Shown here: positions 1 to 27,761 of the stretch, one piece after another
Position numbering within the stretch: position 1 is the first letter of the stretch
Layout: each line of letters opens with the position of its first letter
NCBI GenBank assembly: GCA_963776345.1
Contig: CAVZMH010000011.1
Coordinates: forward strand, 1-39,226
Direction: 5' to 3'
Source of the DNA: an uncultured delta proteobacterium
GTDB lineage: Bacteria > Myxococcota > Myxococcia > Myxococcales > Myxococcaceae
Length of the DNA: 39,226 bases
Notes under the pieces: generated by a model
Told to the model about the DNA's origin: nothing
Databases searched by the model: none
The model's input: the letters and a program-made list of their open reading frames with translations, nothing else
Made by a program: the position numbers and the translations under genes

Positions 1-126
1 GTGAGCACCCCCGCCGAGCGCCTCCGGCCCGACTCTCGCGGCCCGTTCCGGCCGAGCGGCGCCGCCCGCCACTCGTCCGTTACTCGGCCTCCGCCGCGAG
101 AACCCGGGTTTGTTCTTCCTTGGATC
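1..126 (+). mobile_element. Repeat copy 1: putative IS91/ISCR-like oriIS end (non-autonomous; may extend upstream of the window)
   Basis: Matches 2368-2492 except for 1 substitution and a 1-bp indel. Nested inverted repeats at 34-41/94-101 and 50-56/83-89. Ends GAACCCGGGTTTGTTCTTCCTTGGATC. The repeat is seen directly; the oriIS identity is inferred. Confidence 0.6.
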
Positions 127-293
127 GGAAGGGCGTCGCTCGCGTGCAGGATCACGGCCTGGGCCGCTGCGCGCGACGACGAGTGAGCCGCCAACACGAC
201 GGCATTACGCGATGAAGACCCTCTACTACGGCGTCGAGCCGTTCACGGTCATCTCGATCCCGAAGTGACGCGCCATCTTCCAGCGCGACGACT

Positions 294-818
294 TCATGAC
301 CGTCCCACGCTCGCGCCCAGGGTGACGAGAAGCTCGTCCAGTTGCTCGAACGTCTCGCCCATCCCACTCGTACTTCCGGAGGCGATGGCAGCGTCGAGAG
401 CTTCCTTCGAGGGATAGAGGTCGTGCATGACGACCAGCGTCTTGCCGCCTTTCTCCTCGAAGGTCACCGTGGTGACGGCCCCACCGTCACCACCTTCGTC
501 ATTCGTCCAGACGAGGCGCGAGTGCGGTGTCACTTCGATGTACCTACCGAAGAACTCCATCGGCTTTGAGGCAGCGTGGCCGAACACGAAACGGTACCTG
601 CCCCCGACACGAACATCGGCCTCGCAGGAAAGGAGGGACACGCCAAACGACTTCGGTACCCACCACCGCTTGAGCAGCTCGGGCTTGGTCCACGCCTCAA
701 ACACGATGCGCGCCGGGCCGTTGAAGGTTCGCGTGACGACGAGCTCACGCTCGGACTTCCGTTCCACCGTCGTGCGGTTCTTCACGGGGGTGGGCTCACT
801 CTCTCTTCTTGCGTCCAT
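294..818 (-). CDS. SRPBCC/AHSA1-like family protein
   Basis: ELVVTRTFNGPARIVFEAWTKPELLKRWW...DVRVGGRYRF...GRYIEV pattern; overlaps the upstream ArsR gene, a common pairing. Confidence 0.9.
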   Translation of the reverse strand: MDARRESEPTPVKNRTTVERKSERELVVTRTFNGPARIVFEAWTKPELLKRWWVPKSFGVSLLSCEADVRVGGRYRFVFGHAASKPMEFFGRYIEVTPHSRLVWTNDEGGDGGAVTTVTFEEKGGKTLVVMHDLYPSKEALDAAIASGSTSGMGETFEQLDELLVTLGASVGRS

Positions 819-1161
819 CGACCTTCTCCTTCCGTTTCAGTTCCTCGACAACCTTGTCCAACTCGTCGAAGCGTGAGGCCCAGAGCTGGCGGTACCTCTC
901 GATCCATGCCGTCTCTTCCTCCAGTCGGCGCGGGCCGAGCTTGCAGGTCCGCACGCGCCCGACCTTCTCCGTGGCGACGAGCCCGGCCTGCTCCAAGACG
1001 CCGACGTGCTTCTTCATGCCCGTGAGGGTCATGTGGAACTTCTCGGCAAGGTCCGTGATCGAAGCGTCTGCACGTCCGAGCTGCTCCAGAACGCCGCGTC
1101 GGGTCGCGTCCGAGAGCGCGGCGAACGAGGCATCGAGGCGGGTACCCGAATACTGAACCAT
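796..1161 (-). CDS. ArsR/SmtB family transcriptional regulator
   Basis: FAALSDATRRGVL...KHVGVLEQAGLV..EKVGRVR wHTH motif; start placed at ATG 1161. Confidence 0.9.
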   Translation of the reverse strand: MVQYSGTRLDASFAALSDATRRGVLEQLGRADASITDLAEKFHMTLTGMKKHVGVLEQAGLVATEKVGRVRTCKLGPRRLEEETAWIERYRQLWASRFDELDKVVEELKRKEKVDGRKKRE

Positions 1162-1173
1162 GTGGTTCAGTAT
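1150..1173. promoter_or_regulatory. Palindromic operator over the ArsR start codon
   Basis: ATACTGAACCA-TG-TGGTTCAGTAT has perfect 11-bp arms; ArsR genes are commonly autoregulated. Confidence 0.7.
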
Positions 1174-1399
1174 GTAGCGCACGGATTGGCGGCATGCAAG
1201 GGGAGGCCGAGCGCGCGCTGCGGGGCCGGCCGCCTTCGCCCCAAAATCCACGCCCAAGTCTTTGATCGAGCGCGTCGCCGGACGTACGGGCCTTTGCCTA
1301 TGCGAATGATGGTTCAAGCCGAGAGCCAGATCCGCAAGACGACCCCCGTGGTGATCGTCCTCAGCTCATTCCGTGACGGACGTCGTCCCCTTCCCCCTG

Positions 1400-1487
1400 G
1401 CCAGGCTCCGGCCCGACGTCGTCCCCGCCCCCGCTGCCCCCACGCCGCTCGCCGACAGAGCCTCCTGCACGGTGCCAACCAGGCCCG
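1400..1487 (+). pseudogene. IS91/ISCR-like transposase scrap (ARLRPDVVPAPAAPTPLAD)
   Basis: The 5' part matches about 15228-15266; the 3' part (1431-1487) matches 2275-2331 with 4 mismatches in 57 bp. Confidence 0.55.
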
Positions 1488-1567
1488 TCCCCCTGCTCGA
1501 GGGGAAGCGAATTGGGGCTCCTTCGACAACTGATTCAGCGGAAGCGGCGCCGGTTCCCAACTCCCGG

Positions 1568-2017
1568 CTAGGAGTGGAAGTGAACTCCTGCGACGATCTC
1601 TATCCCGATGATCAAGGCAACGACCCAGTCGACGGCAGCGCAGAATGGCGGCCACCACCGGGTTCCGGACACGAACTGACGGCGTTGCTGCCATGCATCT
1701 TTGACCCCGTGGGCCGCGAGCCCGAATGCGAGCAGCCACGCCGATCCTGTGATGCCGGCCGTGGCGACGAGCACGAATGCCATCGCGACGACACACTCGA
1801 CTACGATAACCCTCACCCGTCCGTCGGCCACCGCGAAGCCGATGTAGACGAACGCGATCACGGCCAGTCCGACGGCATAGACGGTCGCCGCATCAAGCCA
1901 CCAGAGGGCGAGCGGCGTCGCAGCCTGGGCCACGCCAACGATGATTCCCCAGGCGATGCCTGCACGCATCGACGGCTTCTCGGCGGGGAGGGGAGAGCTC
2001 GCGCTAGGAGCTGTCAT
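1568..2017 (-). CDS. Hypothetical multi-pass membrane protein (DUF6010-like)
   Basis: 149 aa, hydrophobic; YIGFAVADGR...HGVKDAWQ...TRWWPPFC; GGAGG upstream. Confidence 0.7.
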   Translation of the reverse strand: MTAPSASSPLPAEKPSMRAGIAWGIIVGVAQAATPLALWWLDAATVYAVGLAVIAFVYIGFAVADGRVRVIVVECVVAMAFVLVATAGITGSAWLLAFGLAAHGVKDAWQQRRQFVSGTRWWPPFCAAVDWVVALIIGIEIVAGVHFHS

Positions 2018-2274
2018 GGACGACCTCCTTCCGAGGACCCCGCGTCGGTGTGGCGCGCGTCTGCCTCGTCGGTCCTCGACAGTACAGCGACTGCGCCGCG
2101 GACGGCCTCGATCACTGAATCTGCCCCTTCCGGGCCCCTCCGGGCTCGAGTTATCGGACGCTCGAACCGCGGGTTCAACTTCATTACCCGCTCGGCTGCG
2201 CGAGGCGCTCGAAGTCGAGTTCGCTCAAGCCGTCCTCGACCCCCTCCCCGACTCGGAGGAGGTCGACACCGGCG

Positions 2275-2492
2275 CCGCTGGCCCCACGCCGCTCGCCGAC
2301 ACAGCCTCCTGCACGGGGCCAACCACGCCCGACCGCCCAAGCCGGCCTCGCCGCCCCATCCCCTGCGGTGAGCACCTCCGCCGAGCGCCTCCGGCCCGAC
2401 TCTCGCGGCCCGTTCCGGCCGAGCGGCGCCGCCCGCCACTCGTCCGTTACTCGGCCTCCGCCGCGAGAACCCGGTTTGTTCTTCCTTGGATC
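2275..2492 (+). mobile_element. Repeat copy 2: internally deleted IS91/ISCR-like element (transposase scrap fused to oriIS-like end at 2368-2492)
   Basis: PTPLADTASC...RPRRPIP scrap joined directly to the 125-bp end repeat terminating CTTGGATC. Confidence 0.6.
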
Positions 2493-2614
2493 AGCGTGTT
2501 CTCGCTTGACGCGTACGCCGAAAACCTGACGTCCTCTTCCGAAATGCGCCGGGAGGGTGTGGACTGACCGAGGAGCACCAGACGGCTTCGGTGGCGGGCG
2601 CGGCCGGAGACACC

Positions 2615-4870
2615 ATGCCCTCGGCCGCGGAGACGCTCCTCGGTCGCTTCAGGCTGCTGCGGCGAATCGGCGCGGGCGGGATGGGGGAAGTCTTCGAGGC
2701 ACGCGACCTCTCGCTCGGAACGACGATCGCGCTGAAGACGGTGCGCCAGGAGATCGCCTCCGACCCCGGAGCGCTGGAACGACTGCGCCGCGAGGTGGTC
2801 CTCGCGCGAAGCGTCACCCATCCCAACGTCTGCCGGGTCTTCGAGTTCTTCGAGGCTCCGGACACGGCCTTCCTGACCATGGAGTTCCTCGAGGGAGTGA
2901 CGCTGTCCGAGCGGCTGAAGCGAGCGGGCGCGCTCTCGACGAGGGAGGCTCTCGAGGTGCTGCGGGAGGTCGCCGCCGGGCTCGAGGCCATCCACCAGAG
3001 CGGGATCGTTCACCGGGACGTGAAGGCCGGGAACGTGCTGCTGGTCGAGGACGCCCGGCGCCGAGCAGTGGTGACCGACTTTGGCATCGCCCTGGGTGGA
3101 GCGGGCGAGCGGTTGACCGCGGCGGGCGGGGTGGTGGGAACCCCGGCGGCGATGGCACCCGAGCAGCGTTCAGGCAAGGAGGTCTCTCCGCGCACGGACG
3201 TGTATGCCCTCGCCCTCCTCGCCTGCGAGATGGTCGCCCCCCACGGCGACGGGGTCGGGCTGGAGGGGGTGCCTCGTCGCTGGCGAGCCCCGCTGGCGCG
3301 GTCGCTCGCCGCGGATCCGCAGCGGCGGCATGCCTCCCCGACGGAGCTGGTGTCCGCGCTGGGGGCGGGACGGCAGCGGTGGTCGGGGTGGGCAGCGGTC
3401 GTGGGGGCGCTGCTGCTGGCAGGGGCAGCCGGGCTGTTCGTGGCGCGGGGGCCAGGAGGGACTGCCGTCGATCGCCGTTCGCTGGCGGTTCTGCCGCTGG
3501 CAAACCTCGGCGGTGATCCGTCGGACACCTGGTTCTCGGATGGTCTGACCGATGACATCCTGACCCAGCTCGCGCACGTCCCGGGCCTGAAGGTCATCTC
3601 CCGGACCTCGTCCATGGCCTACCGGAACAGCAGCAAGCCCATCCGGCAGATCGCGTCCGAGCTGGGAGTCGCGGTGCTTCTCGAGGGCAGCGTGCGTCGG
3701 GCCGACGGCCGGGTCCGCATCACCGCCCAGCTCGTCGATGCCCGCAACGACCGGCAGCTCTGGGCCGAGACCTACGACCGTGACGTTCGGGCGGTTCTCG
3801 ATCTCCAGACCGAGGTGGCGCAGAGGGTGGCCGCGGCGTTGAAGCTGCGGCTGGGATCGGGCGAAGGGGCGCAGGTCGGCCTCGGCGGAACCCGGAACCC
3901 GGAGGCCTACGACGCCTACCTGAGAGGACTGTATGCCTCGGATCGATGGGAGCTCGCGCGCGAGAACCTCGAGGCGGCGCCCGCTGCCTTCGGCCAGGCC
4001 ACGGAGCTCGATCCCGGTTACGCGCTCGCCCACGCCCAGCTGGGATACGCCTACGTCAGGCAGTTCCTGTACGAGGGTTACGAGCCCGATGCCCAGCGTC
4101 TGTACTTCGAGCGGGCACGCGATGCCCTCGGGCGGGCAGAGGCCCTCGCGCCCTCCCTGGCGCTGGTGCACGTGGTGCGGGCCGAGATGCTCTTCAGCCA
4201 GCAGGGCGGCTGGGATGTGGATGGGGCGCTCGCGTCGCTGCGCCGAGCGCGTGCGCTGGACCCCCAGGCGGGGCAAGTGGAGGCCGCCGGCCTGTTTGCC
4301 CACATCGGGCTCGCAGACCAGGCGGTCCGGGAGGCCGTGGCAGCTCTGGACCGCGACCCGGCCAGCGCGCGGGCGCTCGGTGCGGTGGTGGAGGCCTACG
4401 CCTTCGCAGTTCGCTACCCCGAGCTGCTGGCCCGGCGCGGACAGCTCTCACCACCTCCGGAGATCCGTGGCTTCATCACCCTGGCGCTGCTCGGTGATCC
4501 GGCGGGCCGGGGCGAGCTCCGGAAGGCCGAGCTCGGGCAGCAGACGGTGCTGATCCGGGCCCTGATCGACGCGCTGGAGGGCCGCACCGCCGACGCCGAG
4601 CGAGCGCTCCGTTCCTATTCCACCCAGGGCGAGGAGAGACGCCGCTACTACCACCACTTCACCTTCTACCGGGCGATGGGGTTCGCGCTGGTGGGGCACC
4701 CGGACGAGGCGGTGCGGTGGTTGCGGAAGACCGCGGAGTCCGGCTACCCGAACGTGGTTGCCTTCCGCCGCGAGCCCCGCCTGGCCAGCCTGCACGGGCA
4801 CGCCGACTACGAGCAGCTCCTCGCCGGGCTCGAGGCTCGGCGCGCCCGCTGGGCGGCCGAGAACCCGTGA
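2615..4870 (+). CDS. Ser/Thr protein kinase with TM segment, TolB-like (SLAVLP.AN) domain and TPR-like repeats
   Basis: GAGGMGEV, IALK, HRDVKAGN, DFG and MAPE motifs; SLAVLPLANL...DGLTDDI...EGSVRR; alternative GTG start at 2591. Confidence 0.9.
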   Translation: MPSAAETLLGRFRLLRRIGAGGMGEVFEARDLSLGTTIALKTVRQEIASDPGALERLRREVVLARSVTHPNVCRVFEFFEAPDTAFLTMEFLEGVTLSERLKRAGALSTREALEVLREVAAGLEAIHQSGIVHRDVKAGNVLLVEDARRRAVVTDFGIALGGAGERLTAAGGVVGTPAAMAPEQRSGKEVSPRTDVYALALLACEMVAPHGDGVGLEGVPRRWRAPLARSLAADPQRRHASPTELVSALGAGRQRWSGWAAVVGALLLAGAAGLFVARGPGGTAVDRRSLAVLPLANLGGDPSDTWFSDGLTDDILTQLAHVPGLKVISRTSSMAYRNSSKPIRQIASELGVAVLLEGSVRRADGRVRITAQLVDARNDRQLWAETYDRDVRAVLDLQTEVAQRVAAALKLRLGSGEGAQVGLGGTRNPEAYDAYLRGLYASDRWELARENLEAAPAAFGQATELDPGYALAHAQLGYAYVRQFLYEGYEPDAQRLYFERARDALGRAEALAPSLALVHVVRAEMLFSQQGGWDVDGALASLRRARALDPQAGQVEAAGLFAHIGLADQAVREAVAALDRDPASARALGAVVEAYAFAVRYPELLARRGQLSPPPEIRGFITLALLGDPAGRGELRKAELGQQTVLIRALIDALEGRTADAERALRSYSTQGEERRRYYHHFTFYRAMGFALVGHPDEAVRWLRKTAESGYPNVVAFRREPRLASLHGHADYEQLLAGLEARRARWAAENP

Positions 4871-4880
4871 GCGGTCATGG

Positions 4881-4976
4881 CGACTCTCGCGGCCCGTTCC
4901 GGCCGAGCGGCGCCGCCCGCCACTCGTCCGTGACTCGGCCTCCGTCGCGAGAACCCGGTTTGTTCCTCCTTGGATC
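4881..4976 (+). mobile_element. Repeat copy 3 of the oriIS-like end (96 bp, 5'-truncated)
   Basis: 3 substitutions relative to copy 2; same CTTGGATC end. Confidence 0.6.
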
Positions 4977-5049
4977 CGTTCGCGGACAAAGAGGCCGGGC
5001 GGCGGGGCAAGGGTTTACGCTCCGCGCCCTTCGCGCCAGAGGAGGCCCC

Positions 5050-7071
5050 GTGCTGCGTCCACTGCTCTTCGTCGCCCTCGTCGCCTCTCCGTTCGCCCGT
5101 GGGGCCAGCGTCGAGCGGTACGCGCTCGTCACCTCCACCGGACGGATCGGAACCCTCGCCGTGATGACGGAGGGTCGCGCGGTGGACGTGGACTGGCGCG
5201 TCGACGACAACGGCCGCGGGCCGAAGATCCGTGAGCACATCGTGCTCGGGCCGAAGGGTCTCCCGGTCTCCCGGGCGATCGAGGGCACCTCGACCTTCGG
5301 CGCCCCGGTGAAGGAGACCTTCGCCGTCGCGGACGGCCGGGCCCGGTGGACCAGCCTGGACGACCAGGGCGAGGCACCGGCGGGCGACGCGCTCTACATC
5401 GACAACCGCGGAAGCCCGTGGAGCCTCCTGCACTACGTCCGGGTCCTGCTGGCGAGCAAGGCGCTGACCCGCGCCGCGCTTCCCTCCGGATCGCTGCGGC
5501 TGCAGAAGCTGAACGAGGTGACCATCGGCCCCTCTCGGCAGAAGGTCCAGGCCTATGCCCTGTGGGGGACCTCGATCGGCAGCCCCACCCTGCTCCTGGT
5601 CCGGGGCACGACGCTGGTCGCCTCGGTCACCCCCTATGCCGTGTTGACGCTGGAGGAGCACGCCGGCCGCTTCGCGGAGCTGTCCGGCGTCGCCCGCGAC
5701 CTGAACGCGGAGCTGCTCCGGGACCTCGCCCGGCGCCTCACCCACCGCCCGGACGGTCCGGTGTGGATCACCCACGCCCGGCTGTTCGACCCGGTCTCCG
5801 GCACCGCCAGCACCGGACAGAACGTGGTGCTCTACCGCGACCGGATCGTCGGCCTGCGCGCGGACCCACCTCCCGCCGGAGCGACGGTGATCGACGCGCA
5901 GGGAGGTACCCTCCTGCCCGGACTCATCGACTCGCACGCCCACACCGGCGACTGGGACGGCCTGCTGGACATCGCCTCCGGGGTGACCCAGGTGCGAGAT
6001 CCGGGGAACGACAACACCTCGCTCCTCACGCTGATGCCGCGCTTCGACTCGGGAGAGCTGATCGGCCCCCGCGTCTTCGCCAGCGGCTTCCTGGAGGGGA
6101 AGTCTCCCTTTTCCGCCTCCGGAGGCTTCACGGTGACGACGCCCGAGGAGGCGGTCGACCGGGTGCGCTGGTACGCCGACCACGGCTTCTGGGGCATCAA
6201 GATCTACAACTCGATGCCGCCAGCCTTCGTGAAGCCGATGGCCGAGGAGGCCCATCGGCTGGGACTGCACGTCTCCGGGCATGTCCCGGCGTTCATGACC
6301 TCGGAGCAGGCCATCCGGGACGGATACGACGAGATCAACCACATCAACCAGCTGGTGCTGATGTTCGTGCTCCGCCCGGGCGAGGATCCCCGGACCCCGG
6401 TTCGCTTCACGGTGATCGGCGAGCGGCTGGCGGACCTGGACCTCCAGGGGCCTGAGTTCCGCCGCCTGGTCAACCTCATGAGGGAGCGGCGGACGACGCT
6501 CGAACCGACCATGGCCACGTTCGCGCCGCTCTTCGTCGGCCGTCCCGGCAAGGGCTCCCCCACCGACGCCCCGTGGATCGACCACGTTCCCGCGCCTGTT
6601 CAGCGCGATAGGAGGACGCTGGTCCTCGACGTGAAACCCGAGCAGTACGCCCGCTACGACGCGAGCTGGAAGAAGCTCGAGCAGATCCTGGTGACGCTGC
6701 ACCGCGAGGGCATCCCGCTCGTCCCGGGCACCGACGAGCTCGCGGGTCTCGTGCTGCACGGCGAGCTCGAGTCGTGGGTCACCGCAGGTCTCGCCCCGGT
6801 CGACGCTCTCCGGGCGGCGACGCTCGGAGGTGCGCGCTTCCTCGGCCGCGAGGCGGAGCTGGGAACCATCGCCGTGGGCAAGCGGGCCAACCTCTACCTG
6901 GTGGAGGGCGATCCGCTCACCGACATCCATGCCATCCGGAAAGGGCGGCTGGCGGTGAAGGACGGGGCGCTGTTCTACCCGGACGAGATCGACACCGCGC
7001 TGCAGATCACCCCCTTCGCCCGGCACGTCGAGCCCCAGCCCGCCGGGGTGGCGAAGCCCGCGAGCCGCTGA
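5050..7071 (+). CDS. Secreted amidohydrolase family protein
   Basis: GGAGG RBS then GTG 5050; signal peptide; IDAQGGTLLPGLIDSHAH metal motif; GTD; GTIAVGKRANL. Confidence 0.88.
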   Translation: MLRPLLFVALVASPFARGASVERYALVTSTGRIGTLAVMTEGRAVDVDWRVDDNGRGPKIREHIVLGPKGLPVSRAIEGTSTFGAPVKETFAVADGRARWTSLDDQGEAPAGDALYIDNRGSPWSLLHYVRVLLASKALTRAALPSGSLRLQKLNEVTIGPSRQKVQAYALWGTSIGSPTLLLVRGTTLVASVTPYAVLTLEEHAGRFAELSGVARDLNAELLRDLARRLTHRPDGPVWITHARLFDPVSGTASTGQNVVLYRDRIVGLRADPPPAGATVIDAQGGTLLPGLIDSHAHTGDWDGLLDIASGVTQVRDPGNDNTSLLTLMPRFDSGELIGPRVFASGFLEGKSPFSASGGFTVTTPEEAVDRVRWYADHGFWGIKIYNSMPPAFVKPMAEEAHRLGLHVSGHVPAFMTSEQAIRDGYDEINHINQLVLMFVLRPGEDPRTPVRFTVIGERLADLDLQGPEFRRLVNLMRERRTTLEPTMATFAPLFVGRPGKGSPTDAPWIDHVPAPVQRDRRTLVLDVKPEQYARYDASWKKLEQILVTLHREGIPLVPGTDELAGLVLHGELESWVTAGLAPVDALRAATLGGARFLGREAELGTIAVGKRANLYLVEGDPLTDIHAIRKGRLAVKDGALFYPDEIDTALQITPFARHVEPQPAGVAKPASR

Positions 7072-7091
7072 GGCGGGAGGGGAGCTAGCAT

Positions 7092-7117
7092 GAACCCGGT
7101 TTGTTCTTCCTTGGATC
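7092..7117 (+). mobile_element. Repeat copy 4: minimal 26-bp oriIS-like end
   Basis: GAACCCGGTTTGTTCTTCCTTGGATC, identical to the end of copy 2. Confidence 0.6.
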
Positions 7118-7122
7118 TGAGG

Positions 7123-7155
7123 TGACCTGCCCCCCTAGAGACGGGGGGCAGGTCA
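7123..7155. repeat. Perfect 13-bp inverted repeat (TGACCTGCCCCCC-N7-GGGGGGCAGGTCA)
   Basis: Seen directly; could be a hairpin or collapsed IS3-family termini. Confidence 0.75.
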
Positions 7156-7297
7156 TCGGCATCCTCGCGGTCAGCGTGACTCGGCGAGCCGCTGGCTGAG
7201 TGGACCTCGTCTCCCAGGAGTTCGCCACGGCCGTCCGCACTCGAATCTCGGGTACAGAACGCCCATCGAGTTCAGTCGAGAGCAGGAGCAACAAACA

Positions 7298-8186
7298 TCA
7301 ACCCTCAGAGAGGCAGCCTTCACGCAACCACTGGTCCGATGAACGCCCAGCCCTTTTTTTGTAGCGCAAGCTGGCTTTCCACGGCGCCCGCCTCCTGCGA
7401 GCAGCCAGGACCATGCCGAGTAATCCCAACATCAGCGGTGTCGTGGCCTCTCCACTCCTGCCGCTGCTGCTGCAGCCACCCCAGGGTCGGACCATCACCT
7501 TCAGGTAGCCCGGCGCGGCGGCAGGAACGGGCAACGCCGGTGCCGGCTTCACCCCCACGGCGAAGAGATCGGTCCGGGCATCGACGGGCTCTCCGCGCGA
7601 CTGCTCTGGCGACATATAGGCCAGCTTGCCCCTCAGCATTCCCGCGGTGGTGGCCTGATGTCTCAGCTTGGCGATGCCGAAGTCCGCGAGCTTCACTGCG
7701 CCCTCGAACGACACCAGGATGTTGTGCGCGGGTCACATCGCGGTGAACGAGGCCCAGGGGGCGGCCCGCTTCGGTGAGGCGGTGGGCGTATCCGAGCCCG
7801 CGGAGAAGCTCGAGGCAGATGTGGGCGACCAGCATTGGGCCCGGCGGTTGACCGTGCTGGAACGCGCGCTTGAGCAGTTGCGCGAGTGACCGACCGCGCA
7901 CGTACTCCATGGCGAGGTAGTAGGTGTCGCCCACGCGATCGAAGTCGAAGATCTGGACAATGTTGGGGTGGTTGAGGCGGCTGGCCAGACGCGCCTCGGA
8001 CACGAACATTTCGACGAAGCTCGGCTCCGTCGCCAGATGGGCGCGAATACGCTTGATCACCACCTCCTTGACGAAGCCCTCCGGGCCGTGAACGGAGGCG
8101 AGGAAGATCTCCGCCATCCCGCCCTCGGCGAGCTTCCGGCGAATGACGTACCGCCCGATGTTCGGCTCAGGTGGCACGGAAATCAT
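7298..8186 (-). pseudogene. Frameshifted, truncated Ser/Thr kinase fused to PEGA-like and MYXO-CTERM-like scraps
   Basis: AEGGMAEIF, VVIK, HRDVT, then a frameshift near 7728, then KLADFG..YMSPE..DLFAVGV. Abrupt join near 7549 to [10 protein letters not shown] and [19 protein letters not shown]. Confidence 0.8.
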
Positions 8187-8213
8187 GAAAACCAAGGGAG
8201 ATCATCTGATCAC

Positions 8214-8236
8214 AACCCGGTTTCGTCTTTCACTCC
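8214..8236 (+). repeat. Degenerate copy 5 of the oriIS-like motif
   Basis: AACCCGGTTTCGTCTTTCACTCC compared with AACCCGGTTTGTTCTTCCTTGGA; intergenic between divergent genes. Confidence 0.35.
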
Positions 8237-8310
8237 GGCGGGACGACGAGACCCAGCTTGACACTCCTGAAGCGACGGTGCGCTCATGGACGCAACGAGG
8301 GGGGGGAAAC

Positions 8311-8904
8311 ATGCAAGGCCTGGGGCGTTGTTCCGCCGCGCTTCTCCTGTTCGCGGGAGTGGCGCAGAGCGGCTGTTCGTGGATCTTCATGTCGCGGGCT
8401 CCGGATCCGGTTCCGGTGCCGACCGCGCCAGTGGACTGCACGACATCGAGGGCGGCGCCGATCCTGGACACGATCTGCTCCGCGTACTTCGTGGCCAACG
8501 GCGTCGTCTTGGCGGCGTCGCAGACGTGCCCGAGCGCCACCGGCGGAACCTGCTTCGATCAGGGAACCAAGGTGGCGGGAATCATCACCTCGGCTGCGCT
8601 CGCGGGGGTCTGTGGGTTCTCGGCTGCCGCGGGGTTTGGGTACGCCAATCGCTGCGAGGAGACGAAGGAGGTCAACGGGCTGTGCATCAGCGGGAACGAG
8701 CGAGCCTGTCTGAAGCTCAACCCCGACTGGTCGCCCCCGCGCTTCGTTCCCGGGGCTCCCGCACAGCCTCCTGCGCCGCCCCCGGTGGCACCGCCTCCCG
8801 AAACGCCCGCGGTCCCACCTCCCTCCGGCCCTTCCCCGCCCTCGGCGACCCGCGTCGATCTCTTCGATCCAGCCGCGGTCGCCAGAGCACGAGCGGAGCA
8901 GTGA
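8311..8904 (+). CDS. Cys-rich putative lipoprotein with Pro-rich C-terminus
   Basis: G-rich RBS, ATG 8311, signal peptide ending QSGC, many Cys, internal hydrophobic segments. Confidence 0.7.
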   Translation: MQGLGRCSAALLLFAGVAQSGCSWIFMSRAPDPVPVPTAPVDCTTSRAAPILDTICSAYFVANGVVLAASQTCPSATGGTCFDQGTKVAGIITSAALAGVCGFSAAAGFGYANRCEETKEVNGLCISGNERACLKLNPDWSPPRFVPGAPAQPPAPPPVAPPPETPAVPPPSGPSPPSATRVDLFDPAAVARARAEQ

Positions 8905-8952
8905 CCTCGGGGGGGAGGACCTCCGCGTCGCCTACCGTTCGCAGCTTGCCTC

Positions 8953-9537
8953 ATGCTGGCCACGTGGTGCGCCTTCGGCAATCGGCACGCCAACCTGCAC
9001 TACCCTCCGGCGGGTGAGCCTCAGGGCCCATTGGCCGTCGTCGCCGTCTCCACCGACGCTCCGGCGGTCGCGGTGCGGGTGACCGACATGCGGCAGGGTT
9101 CGCGGACGACGGTGGGCGAGATGCGAAACGGGTTCGGCATGCACACCGCGGACGTCGAAATCCAGCAGGATGCGGTGCTCTGGGTGAAGGGGGCGCTGGA
9201 GCGAGAGCTCACCGTCCAGGGCTTCCGCGTCGCCCAGTCCGAAGGCGCACCGGGGCTACTGAACAGCGAACTGCTCGCTCTCCATTGCGGTGCCTATTTG
9301 AGCCACGGAGGCGAGGTGTCCCTCCGGGTCGAATTCAAGAGCGGGCAGAACGCGATTCCCCCGGCGGTGTACGTGGGGCACGGGAGCGCCGGGGTGAACA
9401 TGGCGGCGAGCGAGGATTCGTACTCGGAGAGCATGGCCCTGGCGCTCCAGGACGCGCTCCGACAGGTCGCCGCCCAGCTGAAGTGGGCGCTGACTCAGCC
9501 GGGGCAGCCGCCGCCGGTCGCCGGACCGTCCTCCTGA
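8953..9537 (+). CDS. Putative YajG-like lipoprotein
   Basis: VAVRVTDMR..TVGEMRNGFGMHTADV...ALQDAL pattern. The true start may be GTG 8901, out of frame across a G7 run. Confidence 0.6.
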   Translation: MLATWCAFGNRHANLHYPPAGEPQGPLAVVAVSTDAPAVAVRVTDMRQGSRTTVGEMRNGFGMHTADVEIQQDAVLWVKGALERELTVQGFRVAQSEGAPGLLNSELLALHCGAYLSHGGEVSLRVEFKSGQNAIPPAVYVGHGSAGVNMAASEDSYSESMALALQDALRQVAAQLKWALTQPGQPPPVAGPSS

Positions 9538-9564
9538 CCATGGTGACGCCTCCCTCGCTCCGGG

Positions 9565-10002
9565 CACCCCCTCGAGCAGCGCCACCTCCCAGGCGAGCCG
9601 AACCGCCAGGAGTTCGACAAGCGTGCCGTCGCGCCTTCCGTCTCGCTCGGCCTCCCACCCCCGCTGCCGAGCCACCGCCGCCCATCCGGAAATGGTCGCC
9701 GGCAGCCAGCCGGCGGGCACGCCGAGTCGGGTCAGCGCGGCGATGGCTACCTCGCCGGGCTCCGCCGGAGGGCCGCGCACCGTGGCCCGGTAGCCCTTTA
9801 CCCCGAGCACCTCGGGTGCATGGTCGTGCAGCGCCTCGGCGCGCCACGCGGGGTAGGGCTCGAGGTGGCGCGACGGGGAGGGCCAGGAGGCCTGACCCTC
9901 GTCGAAGCACGCCGCTGCCCAGGCCGAGAGCCGGTCGGTGAGAAGCGTCCCGTGGTCCCTCCCGGTGAGCTGAGCGGTCACCTCTGCCACGTTGGGAAGC
10001 AG
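9565..10002 (-). pseudogene. Internal fragment of DabA/DUF2309 (YbcC) inorganic-carbon transporter subunit
   Basis: WAAACFDEGQASW...AWRAEALHD..PEVLG...GWAAVAR...WEAERDG...LLAVRLAWE; no start and no C-terminal part. Confidence 0.7.
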
Positions 10003-10037
10003 GCGCGCCGGTCCCGCCGGAGCGCGGCTGACGACCC

Positions 10038-10076
10038 CGGCCTCCGGAGCGAACGCCCCGCTTACTCTTCCCTGGA
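10038..10076 (+). repeat. Degenerate copy 6 of the oriIS-like motif
   Basis: CGGCCTCCGGAGCGAACGCCCCGCTTACTCTTCCCTGGA; shares GCGAACGCCCCG with copy 7. Confidence 0.45.
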
Positions 10077-10130
10077 GTGGTCGATCGCCTCGATCGTTCG
10101 CGCCGCGACGCTCACGCACTCGGAGCATCG

Positions 10131-10544
10131 CTATTTCTTCGACGCCACGGAGCGCTCCTGGATCGCCCGAACCTGGTCGAGCACCTCGGGAATGTCGCTC
10201 AGCTCGAAGAACGGGCGGATCTCGATCTCGCTGGCCTCGGCGTCCGGGGGCGGGTTGGGGCGACGCTTGACCCACTCGATCGCTTCTTCGAGCGACTTGC
10301 ACTGCCAGATCCAGTAGCCCGCGACGAGCTCCTTGGCCTCGGTGAACGGCCCGTCGACGACGGTGGGCTTCTTGCCCGACGAGCACTTGACGCGCGCGCC
10401 GTACTTGCTCGCCTTGAGACCCGCCGCGTCGACCATCACGCCCGCCTTGACCAGCTCCTCGTTGAATCTGCCCATGCACGTCAGCGTCTCCGGCGAGGGC
10501 CGCGCGCCGGTCTCGGATTCCTTGGTGGCCTTGACGATGATCAT
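10131..10544 (-). CDS. YciI family (DGPF-domain) protein
   Basis: MIIVKATKESE..., VVDGPFTEAKELVAGYWIWQCKSLEEAIEW. Confidence 0.88.
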   Translation of the reverse strand: MIIVKATKESETGARPSPETLTCMGRFNEELVKAGVMVDAAGLKASKYGARVKCSSGKKPTVVDGPFTEAKELVAGYWIWQCKSLEEAIEWVKRRPNPPPDAEASEIEIRPFFELSDIPEVLDQVRAIQERSVASKK

Positions 10545-10599
10545 GAAAGCACCTGCACCCCCGCCTGACGCCAGGCTCGGGACTTCACCACCCTCGGCA

Positions 10600-10680
10600 G
10601 CGGTGAGCACGCCTCCGCAGCGCCTCCTGGGTTCGTCGTCCTGCCTCGAGGCGAACGCCCCGTTCGTCCTTCCTTGGATC
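10600..10680 (+). mobile_element. Divergent copy 7 of the oriIS-like end
   Basis: Starts GCGGTGAGCAC..AGCGCCTCC like copy 2 and ends GTTCGTCCTTCCTTGGATC. Confidence 0.55.
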
Positions 10681-10761
10681 GCTGGTCGCCGGTCGCGGAT
10701 GGCGTAGACTCGCCGCGCCCGCGCTTCCGCGGGACGGAGCGGAGCGACGAAGGGGGAGCCG

Positions 10762-11349
10762 ATGAAGCGCTGGATGATGCTCGGTCTGCTTGTCGGTGCG
10801 TGCGGGAGCAACAATGGATCTGGCAGCTCGGGGCCAGGATCGATCTCCGGAACGGTCGGCGGACAGCCGTTGAACGTGAAGGATGCGGTGTTCAGCCTCG
10901 AGAACAACGCGGTCACGGTCGTGGTCACCGACCGCGAGAACATCTGCTCGCTGCTGAGCGGAACGACCTTGCCCGGCACGACCACCGCGCTGTTCCTCTC
11001 CATCGCCAACTTCGTCCCTCCGTCGACGGTCAGTCCGCACGTCACGGGCGACTACGCCTTCTTCGACCTGGGCGGATCGACCCTCCCGACCACTGCGGGG
11101 CGGTACTGGTACGGCGGATTCGAAACGGTCACCGCCAGCTGTACCCAGGCCACCGCCGCGCTGGCCACCGGCGGCACGGTCACGGTGACCCAGACCGGGA
11201 ATACGTCGGGAACGCAATTCAAGGCGAATCTCACCGGCCTCCAGTTCGGAGGCGACACCCTGAACGGAAGCATCGAGGCCACCTACTGCCCCGCGCTCTC
11301 CACCACCACCTGCGGGACGCTGCTCGCCCGACCAGGACCGACCGAATAG
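10762..11349 (+). CDS. Gly/Ser/Thr-rich lipoprotein
   Basis: GGGGAG RBS; MKRWMMLGLLVGAC lipobox. Confidence 0.8.
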   Translation: MKRWMMLGLLVGACGSNNGSGSSGPGSISGTVGGQPLNVKDAVFSLENNAVTVVVTDRENICSLLSGTTLPGTTTALFLSIANFVPPSTVSPHVTGDYAFFDLGGSTLPTTAGRYWYGGFETVTASCTQATAALATGGTVTVTQTGNTSGTQFKANLTGLQFGGDTLNGSIEATYCPALSTTTCGTLLARPGPTE

Positions 11350-11449
11350 GAGCCCCGCGCGGAGCGCACGAGCTGCGCATAGGCGTAGGCTGCGAGGGCC
11401 AGAGGCCAGTCGGCGACCGTCCAGAAGAGGCGCGAGGCGAGCGAGGGCT

Positions 11450-12022
11450 TCATCGCGCCCTGGCCTCGCGCAGCGGCTTGAGCGCCGTGGCCCAGCGGTG
11501 CAGCTCGTCGAGCATGTCGGCCGCCGCCTTGTGCTGGGCGTCGGTCGGGGTGAACGTCCCGTTGGCGATCTGCTTGGAGACGAACGGGATCGCCACCTGC
11601 TCGACGATCGGCATCACCTTCACCGAGGTGAGGGGCACCTTCGCCATCTGCGTCGATCGGAGCCCGCCGCTCACCCCACCGTAGCTGACGAAGCTCGCCG
11701 GCTTGTAATTCCACTCGCTGTAGACGAAGTCGATCGCGTTGAGCAGCGTGGGCGGCATCCCGAAGTTGTACTCCGGGATGACGAAGGTGAAGGCGTCGGC
11801 CGCGTCCACGATCTTGCTCCAGGCATGGGTGTGCGGCTTCGTGTACTTGCGGAGCTTGGGGTGCTCCGGCTCATCGAGGAGCGGAAGGGCGAGGTCCTGG
11901 AGGTCCGCCAGGGTCACCTCGAAGTTCCCGTGCTCCACCGCGCGGCGATGGAACCACTGCCCCACCGCGAAGCCGACCCGAGCCGGTCGGGTGCTGACCA
12001 CGACCACGTTGAGCTTGAGCAT
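11450..12022 (-). CDS. NADPH-dependent FMN reductase family protein
   Basis: STRPARVG, ADAFTFVIPEYN, EWNYKPASFVSYGGVSGGLR. Confidence 0.92.
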   Translation of the reverse strand: MLKLNVVVVSTRPARVGFAVGQWFHRRAVEHGNFEVTLADLQDLALPLLDEPEHPKLRKYTKPHTHAWSKIVDAADAFTFVIPEYNFGMPPTLLNAIDFVYSEWNYKPASFVSYGGVSGGLRSTQMAKVPLTSVKVMPIVEQVAIPFVSKQIANGTFTPTDAQHKAAADMLDELHRWATALKPLREARAR

Positions 12023-12031
12023 GATCCCGCC

Positions 12032-12919
12032 TCAGGCCAGGTTCTTCTCGAGGAAGTCGATCGTCCGCTGCCACGCCAGCTGGGCCGCGGCCTTGTCATA
12101 GCGAGGCGTGGTGTCGTTGTTGAAGCCGTGCTGGGTGCCGGGATAGGTGAACATGTGGTACCGGACGTGGTTCGCCTCGAGTGCCGCCTCGTAGGCCGCG
12201 GCGCCGGCGTTGATCCGATCGTCGTGCTCGGCGTAGTGGATGAGCAGCGGCGCCCTGATGCGAGGGACCTCCTCGGCCCTGGGCTGGGCGCCGTAGAACG
12301 GAACGGCCGCTGCCAGGTCGGGGAGACGGGTCGCCAGGAAGTTGGCGATTCCGCCGCCGAAGCAGAATCCCACCACGGCGATCTTGCCGGTGCAGTCCGG
12401 ACGGCTCCGGAGGTAGCCCGCGGCGGCGACGAAGTCCTCGCGGACCTTCGCCGGGTCGAGCTTGGCGAACAGCTCGCGCGCCTTGTCCTCGTCGCCGGGG
12501 TAGCCGCCGAGCGGCGCCAGCGCGTCCGGCGCGAAGGCCATGAATCCCTCGAGGGCGATCCGCCGGGTGATGTCCTCGATGTGCGGATTCAGCCCGCGGT
12601 TCTCGTGAACCACCAGGACCCCGGGGAGCTTCCCGGATGCGCTGGCCGGGCGCACCAGGTAACCCCGCATCTTTCCCTGGCCCTGCGGCGACTGGAACTC
12701 GACCGTGCTCGCCTTGACCCGGCTGTCGTCCTTCGAGATCTGCTGGGCCTCGGCGAAGCGCGGGCTGAGCGCATCGAGGAGCATCGACGCGGTCATCCCG
12801 CCGACGGCGTACTTGGTCGCCCGCCGGAGAAACCCTCGGCGATCGATGTCGCCGTGTACGTACTTGTCGAAGAGATCGAGCAGCCCCTGATCGAAGTCGG
12901 CTGAGGTCTTCGGGTCCAT
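12032..12919 (-). CDS. Dienelactone hydrolase family protein (YghX-like)
   Basis: DRRGFL Tat-like motif, HENRGLNPH, GFCFGG nucleophile motif, HGFNNDTTPRYD. Confidence 0.92.
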   Translation of the reverse strand: MDPKTSADFDQGLLDLFDKYVHGDIDRRGFLRRATKYAVGGMTASMLLDALSPRFAEAQQISKDDSRVKASTVEFQSPQGQGKMRGYLVRPASASGKLPGVLVVHENRGLNPHIEDITRRIALEGFMAFAPDALAPLGGYPGDEDKARELFAKLDPAKVREDFVAAAGYLRSRPDCTGKIAVVGFCFGGGIANFLATRLPDLAAAVPFYGAQPRAEEVPRIRAPLLIHYAEHDDRINAGAAAYEAALEANHVRYHMFTYPGTQHGFNNDTTPRYDKAAAQLAWQRTIDFLEKNLA

Positions 12920-12949
12920 GTGGCGGCCTCCGGGCGCGGTCAACATACG

Positions 12950-13100
12950 CAGCGGTCGCGCCGCGCGCCTGCTCTACCCGTGCGAGAAAGGGCGGGTCGT
13001 TCTCCATCCGGAAGTCGAACCAGTCGTGCTCCGACGCGAAGCCGATGAGAACCCGGCGGGCTCGCTCCTCGGCCTGGCGGAGGTATCGAGACGAACTGGG
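12950..13100 (-). pseudogene. Phd/YefM-family antitoxin remnant
   Basis: SRYLRQAEE..(PAG in a shifted frame)VLIGFASEHDWFDFRMENDPPFLARVEQAR; the central ITRHGK-like segment is absent. Confidence 0.6.
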
Positions 13101-13286
13101 GCGAGCCATGGACCGAGACGCCCAAGGCCAGGCCTATCCCAATCAAGTCGGCCATTCGCTAGAGCCGGGCGGGCTACGCTCCTCGGCCTGGCGGAGGTAT
13201 CGAGACGAACTGGGGCGAGCCAGGACCGAGACGCCGCAACGGCCAGGCCTATCCCACATGCAACGTCGGCCATTCGCTAGAGCCCG
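13055..13286 (+). repeat. Tandem duplication, unit about 113-119 bp
   Basis: 13055-13167 compared with 13168-13286; the copies differ almost only by single-base indels. Confidence 0.9.
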
Positions 13287-13444
13287 GAGGGCCAGGCTCG
13301 CCGGCCGCGGATGCGAGCCCCGGTCCGTGCGGATGAGCTTCCAGGAGGTCGCGGCAATCGACGACGCCGCTTGAGCATGCTGACCCGCTGGCCGCCGGTG
13401 TTCCCGGTGGGCACCTTTCCGATGGACGGCATCGCGTGAGCGAG

Positions 13445-13709
13445 CAAGCCACTCGTCAGCGGCGCCAGCTTCGAGAGGCTTCCATCGACCCGAGCGCCAG
13501 CGGTGGGTCCACTGGGGCTGCGCCTGTCCGTCCCGAGCAGCGGACGCGGGGGCCTCGACTGCGGACCCGGGGAGCGGCGGGCAGCCACTGAAGTGGCCCA
13601 AGCTTCGAAGGCTTCCATCGACCCGAGCGCCAGCGGTGGGTCCACAGAGCTGGCCTGTCCGTCCCGAGCAGCGGACGCGGGGGCCTCGACTCGACCCGGG
13701 GAGCGCGGC
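13445..13709 (+). repeat. Tandem duplication, unit about 134 bp
   Basis: AGCTTCGA at 13467 and 13601; long identical blocks GGCTTCCATCGACCCGAGCGCCAGCGGTGGGTCCAC and GCCTGTCCGTCCCGAGCAGCGGACGCGGGGGCCTCGACT. Confidence 0.9.
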
Positions 13710-13755
13710 CGGCCCTTGCTCCCAGGCCCGGCAGACCTCGGAAAAGGGGGCACGG

Positions 13756-14007
13756 GTGAAGGTCAGGAGCGATGCGAGGCAGGAGTCGGAGTGGAAGCGA
13801 GCCGCGAAGATCTCCGGGATGTCGCTGGACGAATGGGCGGGGATGCACTTGGACATCTGCGCCGGGCTCGCGCTCGCCAGCGTGGGGTCCTGCGAGCTCT
13901 GCAGACAGAACGCCGACGCACCGGGCGGGAGCCTGCAGATCCACGAGCTGCCCGAGCCGGAAGACGAGGCGGAGGGGAGGCAGAACGAGCTCGACGCCAG
14001 ATCTTGA
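13756..14007 (+). CDS. Small hypothetical protein, possible ribbon-helix-helix N-terminus
   Basis: AAGGGGG then GTG; VKVRSD..EWKRAAKISGMSLDEWA; CELC; acidic tail. Confidence 0.35.
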   Translation: MKVRSDARQESEWKRAAKISGMSLDEWAGMHLDICAGLALASVGSCELCRQNADAPGGSLQIHELPEPEDEAEGRQNELDARS

Positions 14008-14032
14008 AAGTGTCTAGTTGTATGGGCCGGAG

Positions 14033-14145
14033 GTGAGATCGAGAGATCTGCTGCGGCTTCTTCGTCGGCTGGGATGCAGGGAGGTCCGACGCAAGGGCTC
14101 GCACCGATCGTCCGATGCGGAAACTGTCAGACAGTCGTGCCCGTT
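14033..14145 (+). pseudogene. hicA: HicA-family toxin remnant (frameshifted, 3'-truncated)
   Basis: VRSRDLLRLLRRLGCREVRRKGSH, a frameshift near 14105, then IVRCGNCQTVVPV; no C-terminal helix and no hicB. Confidence 0.7.
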
Positions 14146-14164
14146 GGGTCGGAGCTTCGTCCGG

Positions 14165-15076
14165 CTACCTGCCGAGGCCGATGTCGAAGATGCCGTCGCT
14201 CACGTTCAGCGCGCTCCCCCCTCCCGAGCCGATCGTCCCGCTGAAGGTTCCCTTCAGTCGATTGGCGTCGACGGAGGTCACCACCACCGAGCCCGACGAG
14301 CCGGAGAGGCTCGAGTTGTAGCCGGTACCTCCGATGGTCACCGAGACTTGGTTGGCGGTGCCCGTCCCGCCGAATGGGAAGGTGCCCGGCCCGTTGACCC
14401 CGCTGAGAATGATGTTCACGGTGGACAGGCCGGCCCCCAGGCCGCCGGTCTGGGACGAGCCGCCGAAGGCGTAGCTCCCGCCGGTCTTGGCGACGGTCAC
14501 GATGGTCGCCCCGATCCACGCAGTCCCGCCAAGCGTGGCCTTCATCGTGCTCCCTCGATACGGCTCCAGCGTCCCGGGGGCTCCGCTGACCGCCAGGTCG
14601 AACGCGCCGTTGGTCACCGATTTTGTGGAGGTCGGGTTCACGAGATCGGACGCGGTGAAGCTGAAGGTTCCGGCGATCCGGCTGGAGGTCAGGCTGGTGA
14701 CGATCACCGTTCCGGCGGTGCCGTTCAGGGGCGTCGACCACGATGACGCGCCCTCGCTGACCGTGCCGATGCCGCCGAAGTTCGTCGAGTTCACCCCGAG
14801 CGGATAAGTCCCCGGTGCGGCGATGTTGTAGAGAATCAGGATGATGGTCTGGGCCGTGGTCCCGGAGACGATGTGAGATCCGGTGATGGTGTAGACCGGC
14901 CCCCCGGCTGAACTCCTCGCCGACGCTCCCGCGAACTGATCGGCCGAGAACGACTGGCCGTCGATGGAGGCGGTCATCGGCCCGCCCCCACCGCCGCCGT
15001 TCCCTGGGTTGTTTCCGCCTCCGCCGCACCCCGTCCAGAGGATGGCGGTCACCAGCATCCCGAGCGTCGTTCTCAT
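14165..15076 (-). CDS. Lipoprotein with two tandem beta-rich repeat domains
   Basis: LWTGC lipobox, poly-Gly linker; GTVIVTS..RIAGTFS..VTNGAFDL and GSVVVTS..RLKGTFS..VSDGIFDI. Confidence 0.8.
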   Translation of the reverse strand: MRTTLGMLVTAILWTGCGGGGNNPGNGGGGGGPMTASIDGQSFSADQFAGASARSSAGGPVYTITGSHIVSGTTAQTIILILYNIAAPGTYPLGVNSTNFGGIGTVSEGASSWSTPLNGTAGTVIVTSLTSSRIAGTFSFTASDLVNPTSTKSVTNGAFDLAVSGAPGTLEPYRGSTMKATLGGTAWIGATIVTVAKTGGSYAFGGSSQTGGLGAGLSTVNIILSGVNGPGTFPFGGTGTANQVSVTIGGTGYNSSLSGSSGSVVVTSVDANRLKGTFSGTIGSGGGSALNVSDGIFDIGLGR

Positions 15077-15188
15077 TCCTCGAGGCCTCCGTTGCCACGC
15101 GCTTCGTCGCGCGTGCTACGTCCTCCGGTGCGCGGAAACAGAGCAGGAACCGTCATGGCACGGGCAGGACCCGACCGTCAGGTGTAGG

Positions 15189-15266
15189 TCCAACCTCGCC
15201 CGGTACTTCGCCGTCTTCGCCCCCAACGCCAGGCTCCGGCCCGACGTCGTCCCCGCTCCCGCTGCC
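15189..15266 (+). pseudogene. IS91/ISCR-like (Y2_Tnp) transposase scrap
   Basis: Translates SNLARYFAVFAPNARLRPDVVPAPAA, resembling the NLxRYxGVFAPNxxLR segment around the catalytic Tyr. Confidence 0.65.
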
Positions 15267-15595
15267 CTTCTTCGCCGCTCGACCTGTTTCGAGACCTCTG
15301 CAGGCATCCTGGGCGCGCGCGGGGGGAAGCTCAGGCCCAGCTCGCGCCGGACGAGCCGCGCAGGGCGGCCCGGACGAAACGCGAGCGCAGCTGGTCGCGA
15401 CGGTCGTGGTGGGCCTGAGAGTCACCATCGCCGTGCCCTGATCAGACGGAGCGGATTCCCCGGAGACACCCTTCGCCGCGGTTCTGGACGGACGAGCAAG
15501 AGTCGAGGACGCCAGGGCAAGCGCGCAGCTCGCCCGCCGCGAAGACAACCTTCATCTCTCACCGTCACCCGGTGCCGAGACAGGAGGACTGCACA

Positions 15596-15943
15596 ATGGG
15601 CTCAACGAAAGAAATCCTGGACCAACACCTCAACTCCTTCAGGGAAGGCAATCTCGAGCGCATCCTGTCCGACTATGCGCCGGGCGCAATTCTGTTCACG
15701 CCCGCGGGGCCACTCACCGGAGAGGCGATCCGAGCATTCTTCAAGGGGCTGCTCGCGGAGTTCGCAAAACCTGGCGCCGTCTTCAGACTGGGCGAGCAGT
15801 TCGTCGACGGCGACTATGGCTACATCCTCTGGACGGCCGAGACTGCCGACCAGCGCTACGAGCTCGGCACCGACACCTTCGTCGTGCGCAACGGGAAGAT
15901 CGCGCTTCAGTCGTACGCCGGGAAGACGGCGCCGCGGAGCTGA
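15596..15943 (+). CDS. SnoaL-like/NTF2 family protein
   Basis: AGGAGG RBS; ILDQHLNSFREGNLERILSDYAPGA...GTDTFVVRNGKI. Confidence 0.85.
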   Translation: MGSTKEILDQHLNSFREGNLERILSDYAPGAILFTPAGPLTGEAIRAFFKGLLAEFAKPGAVFRLGEQFVDGDYGYILWTAETADQRYELGTDTFVVRNGKIALQSYAGKTAPRS

Positions 15944-16024
15944 CCGCGCATCGCGAACACGGGACCAGCACCTCACCCGCTCTTCGAGGTGAGCGACGTC
16001 GCTTCCTGCCCGGGCTCCCTCGCG

Positions 16025-16050
16025 GAAACCCGGGGTTGTTCTTCCTTGGA
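16025..16050 (+). mobile_element. Repeat copy 8 of the oriIS-like end
   Basis: GAAACCCGGGGTTGTTCTTCCTTGGA; GGTGAGC at 15988. Confidence 0.55.
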
Positions 16051-16132
16051 GCTCGCGCGCCGGGCTGCTCCAGGAGATCGGGCACCTCCGGGGCGTTGAC
16101 GACCTGGAGCTCGCCGCTCGCCGCGTCCGACC

Positions 16133-17161: not shown

Positions 17162-17196
17162 CGTGGGCCTCCACTCGCTCTGGTCGGCAGCGTCGC

Positions 17197-27741: not shown

Positions 27742-27761
27742 GTTTCCCTCTGGTGAGACTC

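Follow-up and report, generated by a model that had tools for sequence, protein, structure and literature searches.

How did unrelated accessory genes come to stand one behind the other on the chromosome of a soil myxobacterium, separated by short repeats that all face the same way? The question is posed by a 39,226-nucleotide (nt) stretch from an uncultured delta proteobacterium of the Myxococcaceae (assembly GCA_963776345.1), hereafter the window, which is the entire contig C11 (CAVZMH010000011.1) of a genome (G000) of 5.1 Mb that is 98% complete. The initial annotation, made from the letters of the window, had read the repeats as ends (oriIS) of IS91/ISCR-type rolling-circle insertion sequences (IS), and the whole as an integron-like array built by repeated one-ended insertions with a transposase supplied in trans. 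We conclude that a rolling-circle element likely gathered unrelated accessory genes into a swappable island.

The 17-mer core of the repeat, TTGTTCTTCCTTGGATC, was searched at up to 2 mismatches in both the window and its shuffles. It matched the window six times, always on the plus strand, with ends at 126, 2492, 4976, 7117, 10680 and 16052 (copies 1 to 6), and had no match in any of 100 shuffles; thus, the co-oriented intergenic repeat is real. Five of these ends had been placed correctly in the initial annotation, while the sixth had been set at 16050, 2 nt short. Of two further copies listed there in brackets, that at 10076 is a weak but probable decayed end; 8236 was rejected as an end copy (2.3 bits). 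The bases following the five GGATC ends (GGAA, AGCG, CGTT, TGAG and GCTG) had been read correctly, as had 5' extents of at least 126, 96 and 26 nt; by contrast, the copy ending at 10680 extends over at least 125 nt and not 81, and the 218 nt ascribed to copy 2 are in fact 128 nt of 3' untranslated region (UTR) plus a piece of the transposase open reading frame (ORF) from about 2259-2287. Pieces of this ORF at 1400-1493, 2259-2383 and 15186-15279 had been overlooked. Beyond 16.1 kb of the window, profile and core scans found no further end copy, as had been noted. Copies 1-3 resemble one another at 95-98% over 90 nt, and no other end in the genome comes closer to them than 84%; other subfamilies are represented by copies 5 and 6. 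In total, the genome contains about 21 ends, six of them within 16 kb of the window where 0.07 would be expected.

The element behind the repeat was identified in a genome of the same genus (G010, locus L016), in which the tip of the repeat lies 182 nt 3' of an intact transposase of 484 amino acids; on contig C16 of the studied genome (locus L001), it lies 186 nt 3' of the stop codon of a truncated Y2 transposase. The repeat is thus found 3' of Y2 transposase genes, as had been suggested. The domain evidence for an HUH transposase comes from the relative's intact copy, the window containing fragments only: this protein matches PF04986 (Y2_Tnp, 91.6 bits) and PF14319 (zinc-binding domain, 60.1 bits), has an HFH motif, and scores 293 bits with the NCBIfam model for ISCR clade Ia vs 93 bits with that for IS91, both below cut-off. 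It is 34% identical to the transposase of ISCR1 and 37% to that of ISCR2, and its plasmid matches are of the ISCR1/ISCR2 type. It has one tyrosine at the catalytic position, aligned with the single tyrosine of ISCR1 and ISCR2; the two catalytic tyrosines four residues apart of IS91 proper (PMC5714925) are not present in it. Moreover, the end of the repeat can be aligned with oriIS of ISCR1 and ISCR2, with the last six bases variant, in agreement with the proposed oriIS identity. Two long copies have 5' sequence in common from about position 849 of L016, together with an inverted repeat that may be a candidate for the subterminal palindrome of terIS. The motif is present in 7/13 genomes of the genus, and an exact scan of a species-genome collection returned 33 stretches, most of which carry the labels Myxococcaceae, Myxococcota or uncultured delta proteobacterium. 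Judged by these alignments, each repeat is an oriIS end, truncated on its 5' side, of a myxobacterial ISCR-type element of the IS91 family. In G010, the intact element itself lies in a small island beside two tRNA genes, and a repeated tRNA 3' end marks the limits of this island (160-330 and 3361-3403).

In a survey of 56 ends, one of which is probably a false hit, GGA was fixed, a constancy due in part to the search pattern, and was followed by YC and then by no conserved tetramer. GAAC or CAAG directly 3' of the end was found in 0/56 and GGAC in 1/56, and T was enriched at base +1 (24/56); for a sister end, GCCTATACGC, CAAG followed in 2/55. A target tetramer after the end was therefore rejected for both. 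Native homologs of the right flank were available for 13/60 ends; homology starts at +1 in 8/13, and none of the native flanks carries GAYC upstream, which rules out GATC as a target instead of element sequence. A complete pair of filled and empty sites for a test of target-site duplication was not found. Because native flanking DNA begins at +1, lacks GAYC and shows no tetramer, we conclude from these flanks that the element terminates exactly after GGAYC, without an IS91-type target of the kind described in PMC13181058. With its single tyrosine and no tetramer target, the element is of ISCR-like lineage and not IS91 proper; the repeats had been correctly recognised as IS91/ISCR ends. At L001 (2260-2356), a degraded copy of a tRNA-like gene, together with 26 nt from upstream of it, begins at +1 after an end; its intact locus is found 60 kb away.

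Clustering and co-orientation were examined beyond the window. The sister end has 95 matches in five complete genomes of the family, in which similar arrays occur, with 6-12 close pairs observed vs 0.2-0.7 expected, and the complete genome G089 has a 38-kb stretch with 8 co-oriented ends, among them four that are 99-100% identical, with 5' extents of 220, 191, 495 and 325 nt. Adjacent ends 0.3-20 kb apart were co-oriented in 54/64 cases vs 32/55 beyond 20 kb (Fisher p=0.002), a comparison in which the loci of the genus had been chosen for their clustered look and kin genomes are non-independent; in complete genomes alone, the counts were 34/39 vs 27/48. In this count, a lone end on a contig formed no pair, pairs closer than 300 nt (4, all of the same orientation) were kept separate, and the decayed end at 10078 was left out. 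Copies are thus clustered and co-oriented, as the initial annotation had anticipated. A replichore bias was rejected as the source of this orientation, as ends more than 200 kb apart in the five complete genomes had the same orientation in 20/39 cases and opposite orientations in 19; the GC skew of the G000 contigs was too weak for strand assignment. Two side observations concern other genomes. At locus L148 (12376-13022, G125), three sister ends stand in direct tandem with 171-nt spacing, such as rolling-circle run-on or slippage might give; and on a contig labelled Thermoanaerobaculaceae (L058), two co-oriented ends occur together with a RidA gene that is 82% like that of the window, by transfer between phyla or misbinning.

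As initially described, the intervals 2493-4976 and 4977-7117 hold one gene apiece, and unit boundaries at the ends were demonstrated for both units. On the left of the kinase unit, homology to G011 begins at 2505 by BLAST and at about 2498 by eye; on its right, a paralog on contig C15 of the same genome matches to 4883, where a CGA microhomology leads into copy 3. The amidohydrolase unit is homologous to G003 from 5036 by BLAST and from about 4977 by eye, and the native downstream motif of G007 could be followed to about 7092, the start of copy 4; in relatives and next to a 72% copy in G000, the amidohydrolase gene has a different conserved gene downstream. Native neighbours are thus lost at the fragment borders, with breakpoints on either side of copy 3 and to the left of copy 4. 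Because two units are cut flush with same-facing ends, these observations support that the element gathered the genes. To call the array integron-like says too much about its order: only 2 of about 6 intervals are clean single-gene units, and gene fragments and IS3 debris occupy others.

The array could be placed on the chromosome by way of prfC, a conserved backbone gene, while homologs of the cargo genes lie at scattered loci in relatives. Among the nine relatives with a readable prfC flank, prfC touches a metallophosphoesterase-like gene in 4/9, is separated from it by an insert of about 5.4 kb in 2/9, and has other neighbours in 3/9. In G000, contig C24 starts with the end of the metallophosphoesterase-like gene, and the first 17.2 kb of the window are therefore the right part of an island. 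A 9-nt sequence that is the end of this gene is present at both island borders. Contig ends did not overlap so as to extend the window leftward, and an assembly gap lies just left of it. From this gene order, we conclude that the array occupies an island between two genes that adjoin in 4/9 relatives, in line with the earlier expectation that gene order across the motif would not be conserved. The 3' end of prfC is an insertion hot spot in the genus, and the insert at this site in G010 holds a duplicate prfC 3' end.

Near-identical strains were represented by contigs from public soil, peat and sediment runs, which cover the array in part at about 99% identity; uncovered parts were not counted as absence, except where a contig of run X1 joins across. 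A contig of run X3 spans the copy-4 junction with the arrangement of the window (6973-7341). The X1 contig matches 6440-7118 with one difference, continues with 76 letters of 12962-13037 and then with 10327, and at 96% likeness X1 gives almost no cover from 7153 to 10281. X1 also contains a separate end of the same subfamily with unrelated sequence 3' of it. In the strain comparison that had been suggested, X1 leaves the window sequence at end 4, at 7117/7118 (one contig, depth 6).

Four pairs of genomes have modules in common that border inside an end fragment and differ on the far side: G004/G005 (3.9 kb, 99.3%, border 45 nt into the fragment), G089/G071 (4.2 kb, 99.8%), G000/G010 (1.4 kb, 93%, element DNA at both borders) and G109/G071 (2.4 kb, 98.8%). 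In these pairs, the common sequence either reaches 45-220 nt into the fragment or ends some 98 nt before the tip. Because the common modules break inside end fragments, they argue for recombination between remnants. Moreover, in G089 a 1,059-nt piece right of one end recurs as a copy fused to the left side of an identical end fragment. None of the 7 testable ends had its native left half beside it, and at these ends no contiguous empty allele was found either; G089 lacks the 3' half of an amylase gene that breaks off at one of its ends, and has only a 73% paralog. Simple insertion of fragments into genes was rejected, as joining the flanks around five G089 fragments restored no convincing gene.

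Altogether, we favour, with a probability of roughly 0.6, that ISCR-type ends and recombination between their remnants built the accessory island in two steps. In the first, rolling-circle copying would begin at oriIS and stop either early, leaving short fragments, or late, capturing DNA; oriIS would thereby be joined precisely to cargo, and circles made up of cargo and an end would arise. In the second, such circles would recombine into a resident remnant and stack units head to tail; this recombination would give all units the same orientation, with each end followed by the next cargo. Remnants may have been trimmed by later deletions, and the transposase may have come in trans from a full copy that is now lost, unassembled or visiting.

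Several observations weigh against this proposal. The mechanism is read from contigs, and neither a circle nor a transposition event was observed. The G000 assembly is without an intact transposase (the PF04986 model hit two fragments, the PF14319 model hit nothing, the control was silent, and a loose tblastn search gave mostly low-complexity noise), and the supply in trans proposed in the initial annotation is inferred. Copy 4, at 26 nt, is short for RecA, and copies 5 and 6 have diverged too far to recombine easily at present. Two ends from one cluster are only slightly more similar than two from different clusters (medians over 60 nt of 0.86 and 0.82, p=0.054), and that adjacent ends belong to one subfamily as a rule was discarded on this borderline value. 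Missing left halves are also explicable by long cargo or later deletion; the donors are other species at 70-88% identity, and a junction set by eye may be off by several bases. In X1, the joint, one contig at depth 6, leaves 135 letters unplaced. Finally, the 9-nt border repeat may point to another founding mechanism.

The layout might instead have arisen by nested one-ended insertions and deletions, each new unit hitting the dispensable left flank of the previous one without stacking by recombination. Ends do occur inside ordinary genes (in G005, locus L044 cuts a gene after three codons), arrays mix subfamilies, and debris of a general kind, IS3 remnants included, collects at the site. However, insertions alone, which the initial annotation had invoked, leave unexplained the co-orientation that fades with distance, the missing target halves and the modules that break inside end fragments, and we consider this course of events unlikely. 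The end fragments could also be passive debris, short ends that hopped into gaps of a pre-assembled island and carried nothing with them. IS801 inserts ori fragments of 229-679 nt on their own (PMC3189936), and the island has its 9-nt border repeat and other mobile debris; however, both flanks of copy 3 and the left flank of copy 4 lose their native neighbours exactly at the fragment borders, which makes passive hopping very improbable.

A third possibility is integron-like targeting, in which a resident oriIS-flank junction serves as preferred target and terminator, and units are excised and inserted end to end without host recombination. Units 2 and 3 span end to end, the change in X1 falls exactly at the 26-nt copy 4, and in one IS801 event, another IS801 end was the exact stopping point (PMC6354349, Table 3 note h). 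The mixed subfamilies would be compatible with a short recognition site, yet they also speak against a dedicated machine, as does the lack of an intact transposase in the assembly. Moreover, the four cross-genome pairs break 45-220 nt inside the fragment or about 98 nt short of its tip and not at the nick, many cargos are broken, and about 47 ends have unrelated flanks with no fixed site apparent. That the roughly 26-nt oriIS tip is both start and landing site of an integrase-free cassette platform, by which myxobacteria routinely sample relatives' genes, is quite improbable.

Table 1. Ends, cargo and borders of the island in the window
Feature	Position	Strand	Evidence or remark
oriIS end copy 1	1..126	+	contig begins inside copy; 98% to copy 2
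ArsR-type HTH gene and SRPBCC/AHSA1 gene	294..1161	-	Pfam; elsewhere in relatives, twice more in G000
Transposase-ORF fragment	1400..1493	+	1415-1493 is an 86% direct repeat of 2259-2337
Hydrophobic protein between two transposase fragments	1568..2017	-	no Pfam/NCBIfam match
oriIS end copy 2	2259..2492	+	transposase-ORF piece fused by internal deletion to 128 nt 3' UTR and oriIS
Kinase unit: Ser/Thr kinase-TPR gene (ORF 2591-4870) with own upstream region	2493..4883	+	Pfam
oriIS end copy 3	4881..4976	+	96 nt; 97% to copy 2
Amidohydrolase unit (ORF 5050-7071)	4977..7092	+	Pfam
oriIS end copy 4	7092..7117	+	26 nt, identical to copy 2; X1 breakpoint
Presumably IS3-like debris: 33-nt palindrome and 3' remnant	7123..7343		sequence; 82% to G000 contig C16
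Frameshifted kinase gene	7320..8195	-	Pfam
Two hypothetical proteins	8311..9537	+	no family match
DabA gene fragment	9559..10005	-	Pfam PF10070, profile positions 87-242 of 747
Probable decayed oriIS end	10035..10078	+	nhmmer E 1.7; 42 nt match longer element copies at 76-79%
YCII gene, first codons clipped by next fragment	10131..10544	-	Pfam; homologs start 3-4 residues earlier
oriIS end copy 5	10556..10680	+	another subfamily; at least 125 nt
Hypothetical protein, FMN reductase, dienelactone hydrolase, DUF6252 protein	10762..15076		Pfam; homologs scattered in relatives
Transposase-ORF fragment	15186..15279	+	catalytic-domain C-terminal motif; 81-84% to element copies
SnoaL-like gene	15596..15943	+	Pfam
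oriIS end copy 6	16005..16052	+	ends GGAGC; another subfamily
58-nt gene-end copy from G000 contig C20, RidA gene, cupin gene	16064..17161		BLAST, Pfam
9-nt sequence, island right border	17187..17195	+	also at G000 contig C24 1-9
prfC (RF3), conserved backbone	17197..18828	-	profile match and relatives

Further features were noted in the window. The gene body at 1568-2017 was not found among the matches listed for 201 genomes of the family. A palindrome directly 3' of copy 4 (7123-7155) resembles a fusion of two IS3-type inverted repeats. The stretches 13048-13311 and 13458-13714 are near-tandem duplications of 110-130 nt, part of which matches contig C1 of the genome near an element remnant; 119 nt of the first are missing in strains X1 and X5. 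A fragment of a HicA toxin-antitoxin gene (Pfam PF07927) lies at 14018-14140. Outside the island, an ABC ATPase gene is frameshifted into the next gene (21169-22983), where a sequencing error is possible, and two multiheme cytochrome c genes with many CxxCH motifs are present in the ORF list (25519-29183).

ISCR elements have been blamed for the assembly of resistance gene clusters, yet ISCR transposition itself is without experimental proof (PMC13393415, PMC6218425). In complex class 1 integrons, variable genes stand directly 3' of ISCR1 oriIS (PMC6218425, PMC7707992), and tandem ISCR1 units have been explained by rolling-circle circles plus recombination (PMC7707992, citing the Toleman 2006 model); further background is given in PMC5737581 and PMC3575428. 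Our searches found no literature on chromosomal arrays of many co-oriented ori remnants, with the main ISCR reviews outside search reach, and none on ISCR-type elements in myxobacteria, with most subscription papers outside it. The array is likely a chromosomal, multi-unit version of the process proposed for antibiotic-resistance plasmids. The circle-plus-recombination model has so far been inferred from plasmids, and the same design is seen here in Myxococcaceae, in chromosomal multi-unit islands whose genes are ordinary ones. Young ends of 99-100% identity in complete genomes, together with the intact transposase of relatives, provide harmless and testable material for the mechanism. Because only ends of 26-230 nt remain, IS annotation misses such islands, and the finding thus flags accessory islands that have been overlooked.

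Of the known systems, IS801 of Pseudomonas syringae has 5'-truncated right-end fragments that move with transposase in trans; its short ori801 fragments are mobile and provide regions for recombination (PMC3189936, PMC6354349). A single plasmid may hold as many as eight ori ends, and deletions are bordered by an ori end. Its tetramers are of the GAAC/CAAG type, which none of the 56 ends has here, and co-oriented cargo stacks as in the window are not described for IS801 in the excerpts of these two papers. ISCR2 (ISVsa3) is similar in its transposase (37% identity) and gives the closest end match, AAAA-N5-TTTRTTCTTCCT followed by 6 variable bases; unlike ISCR2, the ends here have other terminal bases and form arrays of short ends without resistance cargo. 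IS26 is a DDE element with inverted repeats, and integrons use IntI and attC. IS26 translocatable units and integron cassette arrays resemble the island in having one mobile end per unit and one orientation; however, no IntI-type integrase was found among the ORFs scanned in the window (1-18.8 kb), which agrees with the proposed array without IntI, and neither an IS26-type transposase nor IntI was found in the array. ISCR1 has a related single-tyrosine HUH transposase (34% identity), a homologous oriIS, variable genes after oriIS and tandem units. It differs in being a near full-length element on plasmids, with resistance genes, few units and recombination in the integron 3' segment, whereas a chromosomal island here carries remnants of 26-234 nt, at least 6 ends and non-resistance cargo; the end reads CCTTGGATC here and CCTATACCC in ISCR1. 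In total, we conclude that the feature works like ISCR1-linked gene stacking and is neither IS91 proper nor an integron.

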